From a virus, in the UHGV virus genome UHGV-1461890: a stretch of DNA of 41,432 nt, one strand, 5' to 3'. The first letter of the stretch is position 1. Every line of letters starts with the position of its first letter. Below the pieces are notes generated by a model. The model was not told where the DNA came from and made no database searches. It saw only the letters and a list, made by a program, of their open reading frames with translations. Shown piece after piece: positions 7,498-9,949 of the stretch. Both the position numbers and the translations under genes were made by a program.

Positions 7498-7842
7498 ATG
7501 ATAAAAGTACAGTTTGAACATCGAAAGGATATAAACACTATCGTTATGAAGGTAGAAGGCCATGCAGGACAAGCCACAAAAGGCAATGATGTTATATGCT
7601 CTGCTGCATCTATCCTCGTATATACGGTAGCACAGTACCTCAACTTTATTTATAAACGAGGAGGCCTTCAGAAGAAGCCTCGTATCCTGCTAAATGACGG
7701 AGATGCGCTGATAGTAGCCAAGCCTAAGAGTGAATTTGAGGGCGAAGTGCTAAACACGTTTTTCGTTGCTGAGGTGGGATACTCGCTACTCGCACACAAT
7801 TACCCACAGTATGTGAAACTTAAAATGTTTGGTGAGGCTTAA
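7498..7842 (+). CDS. Prp-like cysteine protease (ribosomal-processing protease family, DUF464)
   Basis: Motifs EGHAG (His) and DVICSAASIL (Cys) match the Prp catalytic dyad pattern; located between portal and scaffold as in phages with L27-like capsid leaders. Confidence 0.75.
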   Translation: MIKVQFEHRKDINTIVMKVEGHAGQATKGNDVICSAASILVYTVAQYLNFIYKRGGLQKKPRILLNDGDALIVAKPKSEFEGEVLNTFFVAEVGYSLLAHNYPQYVKLKMFGEA

Positions 7843-7897
7843 AGCCTTAAATATATACCAAAAGTCTCGCTCACTTACGAGCAGAAAGGAAAAATAT

Positions 7898-8863
7898 ATG
7901 ATTCATTTTATCAAACCTATGCACCTAAATCTTCAGCTTTTCGGTGAAGGCACCGGAACAGGTGGAGATGGTGGCACAGGTGCAGAAGGAAGTCAGGGCG
8001 TAACCGAGGTAGCCGCCATACCTCAAATCAAAAGCCGAAAAAGTAATCCTCTTGCTGATACCAAGTATGGTATCCAAGACGATGCAGCACAAGTCGCTGA
8101 TGTGCAAACCAAAGTAACCGATGCAGATGGTGTTACAACTGAAACTGTTGACCGTAATGCTGAATTTGAAAAGCTCATCAAGGGTGAATACAAGGACCTT
8201 TACGATGCCAAAGTTCAGGACACCATTCAAAAAAGGCTTAAAAGCTCAAAGGAAACCGTTGAGAAGTATAACGCTCTCTCCCCTACTCTCGAAATGCTGA
8301 GTAAAAAGTACGGTGTAGATGCTTCTGATATTGATGCCTTAAACAAGGCTATTCAAGAAGACGACTCTTATTATGAGGAAGAGGCCATGGAAAAGGGCAT
8401 CTCCGTACAGCAGTTAAAAGAGATTCGCAGAATGGAAAGAGAAAATGCTGACCTGAAGAGACAAATGCAGGAGCAATCCGTAAAGGAAAATGCTTCAAAA
8501 CTCTACGCTTCGTGGATGAATCAGGCAGAACAGCTTAAAGCGGTTTATCCATCTTTTGACCTTGAAACTGAGATGAGAAATCCAAAATTTGTAGACTTAC
8601 TCCGAGTGCCGAGTATTGATGTAAGAACTGCTTATGAGGTCTTACATAAGGATGAAATAATCCCGGCAGCCATGCAGTTTACTGCTCAGACAGTCGAGCG
8701 TAAACTTGCTAATAAGATAATGGCAAATGGAGCAAGGCCCTCAGAGAATGGTATGAACTCTCAGAGTGCAGCGGTAGTTAAGAGCGATGTGTCACAGCTC
8801 TCCAAAGCCGACCGTCAGGAAATTGCAAGACGTGTCGCACGAGGAGAAAAGATACGATTCTAA
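7898..8863 (+). CDS. scaffold protein with Prp-cleavable N-terminal leader (putative)
   Basis: Track ORF 7829 begins with TTG; first ATG at 7898 has AAAGGA SD. N-terminus MIHFIKPMHLNLQLFGEG resembles the L27 leader; central acidic/coiled-coil character. Confidence 0.6.
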   Translation: MIHFIKPMHLNLQLFGEGTGTGGDGGTGAEGSQGVTEVAAIPQIKSRKSNPLADTKYGIQDDAAQVADVQTKVTDADGVTTETVDRNAEFEKLIKGEYKDLYDAKVQDTIQKRLKSSKETVEKYNALSPTLEMLSKKYGVDASDIDALNKAIQEDDSYYEEEAMEKGISVQQLKEIRRMERENADLKRQMQEQSVKENASKLYASWMNQAEQLKAVYPSFDLETEMRNPKFVDLLRVPSIDVRTAYEVLHKDEIIPAAMQFTAQTVERKLANKIMANGARPSENGMNSQSAAVVKSDVSQLSKADRQEIARRVARGEKIRF

Positions 8864-8926
8864 CTACATCTATCTAATCTCCTTGTAAATACACACAAAT
8901 TACAAAATACAAAGGAGATTAAAACC

Positions 8927-9949
8927 ATGAAAAACATTTTTAAAATCAACCTTCAGCTCTTCGCTGAAATGAACACTCAGGTAACCACACAGTCTTCTCT
9001 CACACCTGAGATGAAGACCTACTATGACATGACCCTCATTGACGAGGCAAGTGCAAAGCTTGTACATGACCAGTTCGGTCAGAAGAAGCCTATTCCAAAG
9101 GGCAGCGGTAAAACCATCGAGTTCCGTAAGTTCTCACCTCTTGGTAAGGCTACCACACCTCTTACTGAAGGTGTTACTCCTAACGGTAACAGCCTGACTG
9201 TAACTGCTATCACCGCTACTGTTGCTCAGTATGGTGACTACATCGTACAGTCTGATGTGCTTGAACTCACCTCTCTCGATAACACAATTATCGAGGCTAC
9301 CAAGCTCTTAGGTAATCAGGCAGGTCTCACTCTTGATACCATCACTCGTAACATTCTTCAGGCAGGTACTAACGTATCATATTGTCCTAAGATTGCTGCT
9401 GACGGTACTGAGACAGAGGTTACATCTCGTGCTACACTCGATGCTACTTGTCAGCTTACTGTTGATATGGTACAGAGAGCAGTAACTAAGCTCAGAGCGC
9501 AGAACGCTCCTACCATTGATGGTGACTATGTTGCTATTATCCATCCTTATGTTGCTTATGACCTCATGAGAGACAAGGAATGGATTGAGGCTCACAAGTA
9601 TGCTACTCCCGAAAACATCTATGCAGGTGAAATCGGCAAGATAGCAGGTTGCCGCTTCGTACAGTCCACCGAGGCTAAAATTTATAAGGGTGATGGTTGT
9701 CCTACAGGCCTTGCTGTATTCGGTACTCTCTTCTTAGGCTCAGGTGCTTATGGTGTAACTGAGATTACAGGCGGTGGTTTGCAGACTATCGTTAAGCAGA
9801 AGGGTTCTGCCGGTACTGCTGACCCACTTGACCAGAGAAGCTCTGTAGGTTGGAAGGCTATTAAGACTGCTGAAAGACTTGTAGAAAACTACATGGTTCG
9901 TGTAGAGTCTTGCTCTAAGAGATACTCTGCAACAGCAGTAGCTAACTAA
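8927..9949 (+). CDS. major capsid protein with Prp-cleavable N-terminal leader
   Basis: N-terminus MKNIFKINLQLFAE (L27-like motif); 340 aa; follows scaffold; strong SD AAAGGAG; terminator downstream. Confidence 0.75.
   Translation: MKNIFKINLQLFAEMNTQVTTQSSLTPEMKTYYDMTLIDEASAKLVHDQFGQKKPIPKGSGKTIEFRKFSPLGKATTPLTEGVTPNGNSLTVTAITATVAQYGDYIVQSDVLELTSLDNTIIEATKLLGNQAGLTLDTITRNILQAGTNVSYCPKIAADGTETEVTSRATLDATCQLTVDMVQRAVTKLRAQNAPTIDGDYVAIIHPYVAYDLMRDKEWIEAHKYATPENIYAGEIGKIAGCRFVQSTEAKIYKGDGCPTGLAVFGTLFLGSGAYGVTEITGGGLQTIVKQKGSAGTADPLDQRSSVGWKAIKTAERLVENYMVRVESCSKRYSATAVAN

Follow-up and report, generated by a model that had tools for sequence, protein, structure and literature searches.

In the 41,432-nucleotide virus genome UHGV-1461890 (hereafter the window, meaning the whole stretch of DNA analysed), a gene for a cysteine protease of the Prp family stands directly upstream of the genes for a putative scaffolding protein and for the major capsid protein, both of which begin with a short leader resembling the N-terminal extension of ribosomal protein L27. 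With a probability of about 0.75, we propose that the phage Prp recognises these leaders and cuts them off. The family of the enzyme, the non-random placement of the cleavage motif, its conservation and its coupling to the Prp gene can be read directly from the window and its relatives.

The mechanism that we have in mind would run as follows. The phage would make its own Prp-type cysteine protease, with His22 and Cys34 as catalytic residues, and the scaffold and capsid proteins would each be made with a short N-terminal tag ending in an L27-type core, (L/I)NLQLF. Phage Prp would bind this core and cut after the Phe, taking 15 residues off the scaffold (leaving G16 as first residue) and 12 off the capsid protein (leaving A13). 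By analogy with phage 80alpha, the tag probably works in folding or assembly, and its removal is possibly not strictly essential. The elements concerned are the following (nt, nucleotides; aa, amino acids; ORF, open reading frame):

7487-7492, plus strand: Shine-Dalgarno-like GAGGTG, 5 nt upstream of the Prp start codon
7498-7842, plus strand: ORF of 114 aa, Prp-family cysteine protease (Pfam, PHROG, fold, PDB sequence match)
7558-7611, plus strand: active-site segment G21-H22-A23...G29-x-D31-x-x-C34...S38, with the catalytic His22/Cys34 and a flexible loop
7885-7890, plus strand: Shine-Dalgarno AAAGGA, 7 nt upstream of ATG 7898
7898-8863, plus strand: ORF of 321 aa, putative scaffolding protein (by position; phrog_13908, E 2e-90, function not assigned)
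7898-7942, plus strand: scaffold leader MIHFIKPMHLNLQLF, 15 aa, predicted cut after F15 (motif scan, scaffold homologues)
8911-8917, plus strand: Shine-Dalgarno AAAGGAG, 9 nt upstream of the capsid start codon
8927-9949, plus strand: major capsid protein of the N4-gp56 family (HK97-like), 340 aa (TIGR04387, E 3.9e-87; phrog_1357; Pfam Phage_capsid_3/4)
8927-8962, plus strand: capsid leader MKNIFKINLQLF, 12 aa, predicted cut after F12 (motif scan, capsid homologues)

A sequence-only reading had pointed to the protease, scaffold and capsid genes, and all three are indeed found at these positions on the plus strand.

The protease and the two leaders

Sequence, key residues and predicted fold all place the ORF at 7498-7842 in the Prp family, in agreement with the Prp-like cysteine protease proposed earlier, and its product is predicted to be proteolytic. 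Its match to Pfam PF04327 (Peptidase_Prp) has an E-value of 1.2e-13 (51.6 bits against a gathering cut-off of 27) and aligns residues 1-107 with profile positions 1-90 of 90. Further matches are to phrog_4478 ('peptidase') and, among PDB sequences, to 2IDL, a Prp-like structure of S. pneumoniae (E 6e-6); an identical protein (P0121) is already recorded under the JGI label 'YsxB (DUF464 family)', on a contig of 41,432 bases, so that the window comprises one entire assembled contig. The protein contains the segment VEGHAGQATKGNDVICSAAS. Prp of S. aureus (SaPrp) is inactivated by mutating G21, H22, D31, C34 or S38, while A23 is its oxyanion residue and G29 a hinge (PMC9405229). All seven are present at identical numbering in the window Prp (VEG21-H22-A23-GQATKG29-ND31-VIC34-SAAS38). 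They are invariant in an alignment of 43 sequences (A1, 61-87% identity); the pattern GHA...D[IV][IV]C...S is seen in 120 of 120 Prp homologues, and G21, H22 and C34 do not vary in any of 97 full-length unique Prp domains of related loci, very divergent ones included.

The AlphaFold model of the window Prp (predicted local distance difference test, pLDDT, 92.5; predicted template modelling score, pTM, 0.85) shows the predicted succession strand-strand-helix-strand-strand-helix-strand. Confidence drops only in the loop from residue 21 to residue 30 (pLDDT about 65); the corresponding loop is disordered in apo SaPrp (PMC9405229). When the model was compared with the PDB using Foldseek, all 14 significant matches were Prp structures (template modelling score, TM, 0.58-0.77), including 2G0I/2G0J of S. 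mutans, 2IDL of S. pneumoniae, 7KLD/7JVS/4PEO of S. aureus and 1S12 of T. maritima.

The window Prp is not an orthologue of the host-type ribosomal enzyme. It matches all 12 NCBIfam equivalog models for 'ribosomal-processing cysteine protease Prp', each time below the cut-off (these range from 122 to 225 bits; the best match reaches 39.4 bits against 171), and because it falls so far under all 12 we do not regard it as a recent copy of a host gene. Ribosomal Prp genes are located between rplU (L21) and rpmA (L27) (bioRxiv 10.64898/2026.08.10.744006), whereas the neighbours in the window are the phage portal and scaffold genes.

At the C-terminus the window Prp reads ...VKLKMFGEA (7822-7839). 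The string x-M-F-G-E-A is kept among phage Prps and resembles positions P2 to P3' of the scaffold site (LF'GEG; here and below the apostrophe marks the predicted cut). We considered this tail, ...(K/N)MF-GEA, as a possible relic of a self-cleavage site. It aligns with the last beta-strand of other Prps and of fused forms, so that it is probably structural, as part of that strand, and a role in self-recognition is less likely.

Turning to the substrates, the scaffold N-terminus from ATG 7898 reads MIHFIKPMHLNLQLF'GEGTGTGG and that of the capsid protein MKNIFKINLQLF'AEMNTQ, and the starts reported beforehand (MIHFIKPMHLNLQLF'GEG and MKNIFKINLQLF'AEM) are therefore confirmed. The cleavage consensus of L27 is MLxx(D/N)LQ(F/L)F'A(S/H)KK, and its form NLQLF'A is found in Clostridium tetani, Enterococcus faecium, Lactococcus (L. 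lactis) and streptococci (PMC9405229, Table 2). Both leaders carry the N-L-Q-L-F core of this signal, ending at residues 15 and 12; the claimed likeness to L27 holds for this core, although the cut had been placed after a 'Phe pair' and the residues before the predicted cut are Leu-Phe. P1' is Ala in the capsid protein and Gly in the scaffold. Gly is smaller than Ala, hence inside the S1' size limit (PMC9405229), and occurs at P1' in 6 of 34 unique scaffold sites. Instead of (S/H)KK, the cut is followed by E-G-T in the scaffold and E-M-N in the capsid protein. Since the 80alpha substrates (ADQS, ASNN) lack (S/H)KK as well, this part of the consensus is specific to L27 and dispensable for Prp substrates.

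We scanned the six-frame translation of all 41,432 bases for a strict motif, [LIVMF]N[LIVM]Q[LFHYMIV]F. Exactly two copies were found, at the scaffold and capsid N-termini, against 0.12 expected from amino-acid composition; the chance of finding the motif in the first 20 residues of both given proteins is about 4e-10. The same scan found no further copies elsewhere in the window, the 3,782-aa protein described below included. An L27-like string, LQFF'G, is present in the portal protein (SQNELALQFFGAGFFNP; window 7096-7146, residues about 539-555) and was evaluated as a third Prp site (LALQFF'GAG, around nt 7117). It belongs to a conserved portal motif, NELALQF[FY]xxGFF[ND]P, often with Tyr at 'P1', and given that this motif is equally found in relatives without Prp and without leaders, we do not count it as a Prp site.

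The scaffold reading frame is open back to a TTG at 7829. As a start codon this TTG has no Shine-Dalgarno sequence, overlaps the 3' end of the Prp gene and would yield a 38-residue leader, against 15-16 residues in homologous scaffolds. ATG 7898 is preceded by AAAGGA and gives a leader of 15 residues, and the start of the PHROG profile falls near this codon, some 6 residues upstream of residue 8 in the numbering of the ATG form. Our analysis thus favours ATG 7898, the start that had also been preferred in the first place. From here the mature scaffold is predicted to span G16-F321 (306 aa, N-terminus GEGTGTGG), and the mature capsid protein A13-N340 (N-terminus AEMNTQVTTQ). The capsid protein scores 292.6 bits against TIGR04387 (cut-off 60) over residues 20-329; as the alignment begins only at residue 20, the leader appears to be an add-on to the conserved fold. 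For annotation purposes this settles where the scaffold begins and provides predicted mature N-termini for the two head-assembly proteins that are most abundant.

Protease and leaders in related loci

For comparison, 160 related loci were gathered from IMG/VR and GTDB genomes. All 120 of the closest capsid homologues (77-96% identical) keep a [ND]LQ-type core followed by Ala, while the leader is otherwise freely variable, its length ranging over 9-26 residues and its sequence differing as well, which argues that selection acts on the site itself. In scaffold homologues the same core is found before the Gly-rich region.

The cleavage motif differs among lineages, and within a phage the scaffold and capsid versions shift together (L003-L162). 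Examples of paired sites are LNLQLL'A with VNLQLL'A, FDIQLF'A with FDIQLF'A, FYIQIF'G with AFIQIF'A, DILQLM'A with NFLQLM'A, FDIQRF'A with FDIQRF'A, and LNLRLF'D with LNLRLF'D. Over 34 unique pairs, on average 5.35 of the 7 positions from P6 to P1' are identical, against 4.23 after shuffling, and none of 20,000 shuffled pairings reached the observed value.

Prp and leader also tend to occur together. In 109 related loci from phages or prophages, a Prp gene stands between portal and scaffold. For the 115 loci in which the sequence reaches 2 kb or more upstream of the capsid gene (two automatic calls were corrected manually), the tally is 104 with both Prp and a capsid leader, 8 with neither, 3 with the leader only and none with Prp only (Fisher p 2.8e-10, ignoring shared ancestry). 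The eight loci with neither (L087, L094, L123, L152, L156, L157, L158 and L161) encode capsid proteins roughly 66-75% identical to that of the window, starting MNTQNYNTQVSTQ..., MATQTTSTQ..., MNNENVQTT... or similar, close to the predicted mature N-terminus of the window protein (AEMNTQVTTQ...). In most of these the scaffold is without a leader too. The exceptions are L157 and L158; together with L159 they make up a clade whose scaffold keeps DSIQLF'AAG next to a leaderless capsid protein, with Prp gone.

About 22 loci carry Prp and scaffold as a single ORF of about 430-480 aa (within L056-L082, e.g. L060:4507-5838 and L056:4489-5784; proteins P0241-P0360). The motif is located exactly between the two domains, as ...DEPAMKLQLF'AEGGGDG or ...SPAVDLQLF'AEGGDG. 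One 439-aa fusion, which NCBI labels as a protein of a Faecalibacterium prausnitzii metagenome-assembled genome (MAG), recurs with identical sequence on 350 contigs, the longest of 634 kb. The fusion looks like a self-releasing polyprotein. The joining of a protease to its substrate through its own recognition site would otherwise be hard to explain, so the phage enzyme itself presumably cuts the junction. One fused form (L059:3471-4901) has two tandem sites 45 residues apart (AVDLQLF'AATATTA...PFDLQLF'AEGGDG).

Very divergent Prps, found only by iterative search, are encoded at L147:2675-3007 (from the cultured Gallibacter intestinalis DSM 108706) and L148:2592-2930, with the patterns SGH...DICVVIST and CGH...DVCAEVST. 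The adjacent substrates carry LHLHLF'D with LHLHMF'D, or LHTHMF'D on both; none of these is among the L27 sites of Table 2 of PMC9405229. When Prp residues were checked for tracking Asp at P1' or His/Arg at P3, no clean discriminating column appeared, and the automatic site calls used for this were partly wrong.

Somewhat short of even odds, in our estimate, is a broader proposal: that Prp gene and L27-like tags together make up a self-contained, portable 'tag-and-clip' module gained and lost as a unit, whose specificity drifts away from host L27 to give private pairs (LHLHMF'D, LNLRLF'D), the Faecalibacterium version being welded to the scaffold and self-releasing. If so, the phage enzyme and not host Prp would set the cleavage code, and the similar relatives without leader and without Prp would offer a natural system to probe the purpose of leader cleavage.

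Host enzyme, other readings and known systems

The closest precedent is 80alpha, in which capsid (gp47) and scaffold (gp46) are cut by host Prp at the same kind of site (PMC5744158), namely ...KFNLQFF'ADQS and ...KLNLQHF'ASNN. Here as there, both proteins have a leader of 12-15 residues that mimics the L27 extension, ends in xNLQxF and is cut (in the window, by prediction) before a small residue (PMC5744158, PMC9405229). The two systems differ in several respects: 80alpha encodes no protease and relies on the essential host Prp, whereas in the window phage a divergent Prp gene of its own directly precedes those of the substrates; 80alpha, a siphovirus, belongs to another capsid lineage, whereas the window has a P22-like portal and an N4-gp56-type capsid; and P2 is Phe or His in 80alpha against Leu in the window, where the scaffold in addition has Gly at P1'. 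Reference to a known maturation system of Firmicutes phages, as made from the sequence alone, is hence justified by the 80alpha precedent but not for a phage-encoded enzyme, since 80alpha uses that of its host (PMC5744158).

Could the host enzyme then do the work here as well? We regard it as unlikely, though deserving of serious attention, that host ribosomal Prp cuts the leaders as in 80alpha and that phage Prp is redundant, a late-infection booster of a limiting activity, or directed at another target such as host pre-L27. The dependence of 80alpha on host Prp is complete, the window site NLQLF'A/G is the same as the L27 sites of several Firmicutes, and phage variants such as FDIQLF'A resemble L27 variants of other bacteria (e.g. 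DIQLF'A); leaders are moreover kept without a nearby phage Prp in L055, L122 and L142. If the host enzyme sufficed, however, one would not expect the Prp gene to be gone along with the capsid leaders in 8 loci and never retained without leaders, nor its fusion to the scaffold in Faecalibacterium prophages with a site at the junction. The sites LHLHMF'D and LNLRLF'D, with Asp at P1' and His/Arg at P3, have no match in Table 2 of PMC9405229 and are common to both substrates beside divergent phage Prps, and the distance from the ribosomal Prp models speaks against a recent host copy. The joint loss, the fusion and the private sites speak for a phage enzyme that at the least suffices for cleavage and in most cases carries it out.

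A number of points nonetheless weigh against cleavage by the phage Prp. For this phage and its close relatives the cleavage is a prediction only, and host Prp probably recognises NLQLF'A too, in which case the phage enzyme could be redundant. Gly at P1' and Glu at P2' of the scaffold fall outside the L27 consensus A(S/H)KK. The three loci with a leader and no nearby Prp gene (L055, L122, L142) count here as well, and the association statistics ignore shared ancestry. The middle gene is identified as scaffold from its position, composition and weak homology: the protein is acidic with a basic C-terminal ...ARRVARGEKIRF, and it shows weak end-to-end similarity (E 0.001, including a C-terminal ...GE+xxF) to gp5 of Bacillus phage Page, which occupies the same position; it has zero Pfam or PDB matches. 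Finally, as cleavage of capsid and scaffold is dispensable in 80alpha (PMC5744158), the term 'maturation protease' may overstate the role. We infer cleavage at the predicted bonds, and by the phage enzyme rather than by host Prp alone. As to L122, its scaffold reads LSLQFF'AEG and its capsid protein GYQFF'ANP, and there is no phage Prp between its portal and scaffold; such FF-type leaders are possibly cut by host Prp.

It is improbable that the leaders stay on as permanent tags for assembly or chaperone binding, with the Prp homologue acting mainly as binding partner or chaperone. Assembly of 80alpha requires the scaffold leader but not the cleavage of either protein (PMC5744158), and a chaperone role of Prp toward L27 has been proposed (PMC9405229). 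The strict conservation of the catalytic set G21, H22, D31, C34 and S38 over about 100 divergent phage Prps argues for retained catalysis, however; close relatives build the same capsid protein without any leader, and an uncut fusion would put a 120-aa domain on every scaffold. A chance resemblance, or a mis-called host gene on a mis-binned contig, can be set aside almost entirely: apart from the shortness of the motif nothing speaks for it, and it would have to account for two motifs at the predicted places where 0.12 are expected in six frames, for their conservation in 120 of 120 closest capsid homologues and for a Prp gene between portal and scaffold in 109 related loci.

Phage Prp can also be compared with other systems. 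With ribosomal Prp (YsxB, MEROPS C108) and its substrate pre-L27, the window shares the fold, His22/Cys34, the residues G21, A23, G29, D31 and S38, and the core (D/N)LQ(F/L)F followed by a small residue. It differs in that the gene is not between rplU and rpmA and scores 39 bits where cut-offs are 122-225, and in that the substrates are virion-assembly proteins with E-G and E-M after the first residue past the cut rather than A(S/H)KK. Protease-scaffold fusions are known from other viruses (P2 gpO, lambda C/Nu3, herpesvirus assemblin-scaffold), where the fused enzymes are serine proteases of the HK97/herpesvirus type. Like these, the Faecalibacterium prophage relatives fuse the protease upstream of the scaffold with a site in between, so that the scaffold would deliver or release the protease; unlike these, the protease is a Prp-type cysteine protease, and in the window protease and scaffold each have a gene of their own, the frames being different.

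Bacillus phage Page (L001; Pagevirus) has the same order of terminase, podovirus-type portal, small acidic protein, N4-gp56-type capsid and terminator, the latter annotated at the same place, and its capsid protein is 38% identical to that of the window. Page has no Prp gene, however, and neither protein has a leader (capsid MATNVQGYN..., gp5 MENELTGLG...), so that its capsid protein, too, begins near the mature N-terminus predicted for the window. According to PMC9261936 and PMC9405229, MEROPS clan CR has just one further member, the prohead cysteine protease of Streptococcus phage Cp-1. As far as these descriptions go, Cp-1 is likewise a podovirus with a phage-encoded cysteine protease of this clan that takes an N-terminal extension off the capsid protein, whereas the protease belongs to another family and removes about 40 residues, with no L27-like motif reported in the portions concerned.

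In the literature searched, which yielded only work on 80alpha with host Prp and on Prp enzymology, we found no phage-encoded Prp cutting the phage's own capsid proteins, and no description of a phage Prp with matching leaders, of their co-variation or joint loss, or of a Prp-scaffold fusion. The mechanism is of the 80alpha/L27 type, and such phage genes are already recognised by Pfam, phrog_4478 ('peptidase') and JGI ('YsxB (DUF464)'). The comparative observations have the best chance of being new. They concern a very common, uncultured group of phages of human and ruminant guts. The purpose of trimming capsid and scaffold by Prp is still unclear even in 80alpha (PMC5744158), and the natural variants (separate Prp, fused Prp-scaffold, altered sites, relatives without both) could open this question to experiment. 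Phage Prps that are divergent and have recognition sequences of their own might furthermore serve as orthogonal proteases for tag removal, and they are relevant to studies in which Prp is a target for antibiotics.

Genome setting

The head module runs along the plus strand in the order terminase, P22-like portal, Prp, scaffold, capsid and terminator. Its remaining elements are:

4014-5480, plus strand: large terminase
5482-7485, plus strand: P22-like portal protein, head-assembly context (PF16510, E 1e-31; phrog_156)
9958-9991 (hairpin 9958-9981), plus strand: intrinsic-terminator-like hairpin with T-run, 10 bp stem with 7 GC, directly 3' of the capsid gene

The window represents a temperate podovirus-like phage of about 41 kb from gut Clostridia, the host probably belonging to the Oscillospiraceae, such as Faecousia. 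A large serine recombinase (Resolvase, Recombinase and Zn ribbon domains) is encoded at 32111-33607 on the minus strand, and on this account we consider the phage temperate; the many prophage copies in Clostridia MAGs are consistent with such a lifestyle. Related prophages occur in gut MAGs, human as well as ruminant, that are assigned to Faecousia, other Oscillospiraceae and other Clostridia, and Faecalibacterium carries such prophages too. More than 8,000 capsid homologues are present in public data. A megablast search of sequenced phages returned zero relatives at the nucleotide level, and at the protein level the capsid finds only distant Bacillus, Paenibacillus and Streptomyces podophages among these; scaffold matches are restricted to unannotated contigs from human faeces.

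Three further observations concern the remainder of the window. A single ORF of 3,782 aa (15917-27265, plus strand) has as its sole Pfam match an ART-PolyVal ADP-ribosyltransferase domain (residues 2188-2354), and is a 'polyvalent protein', a type thought to be injected alongside the DNA. Both ends of the window (1-47 and 41375-41432) hold the same 6/18-bp repeat (TGGCTC..., giving Gly-Ser/Asp/Tyr repeats if translated), which suggests that the genome is circular or complete and that its assembly broke within a repetitive gene. Lastly, a 21-bp tandem repeat of 2.7 copies (GATTTAACTTCTTTACAAAAC; 1871-1927) lies within a 192-aa ORF (1559-2137) upstream of the terminase region.

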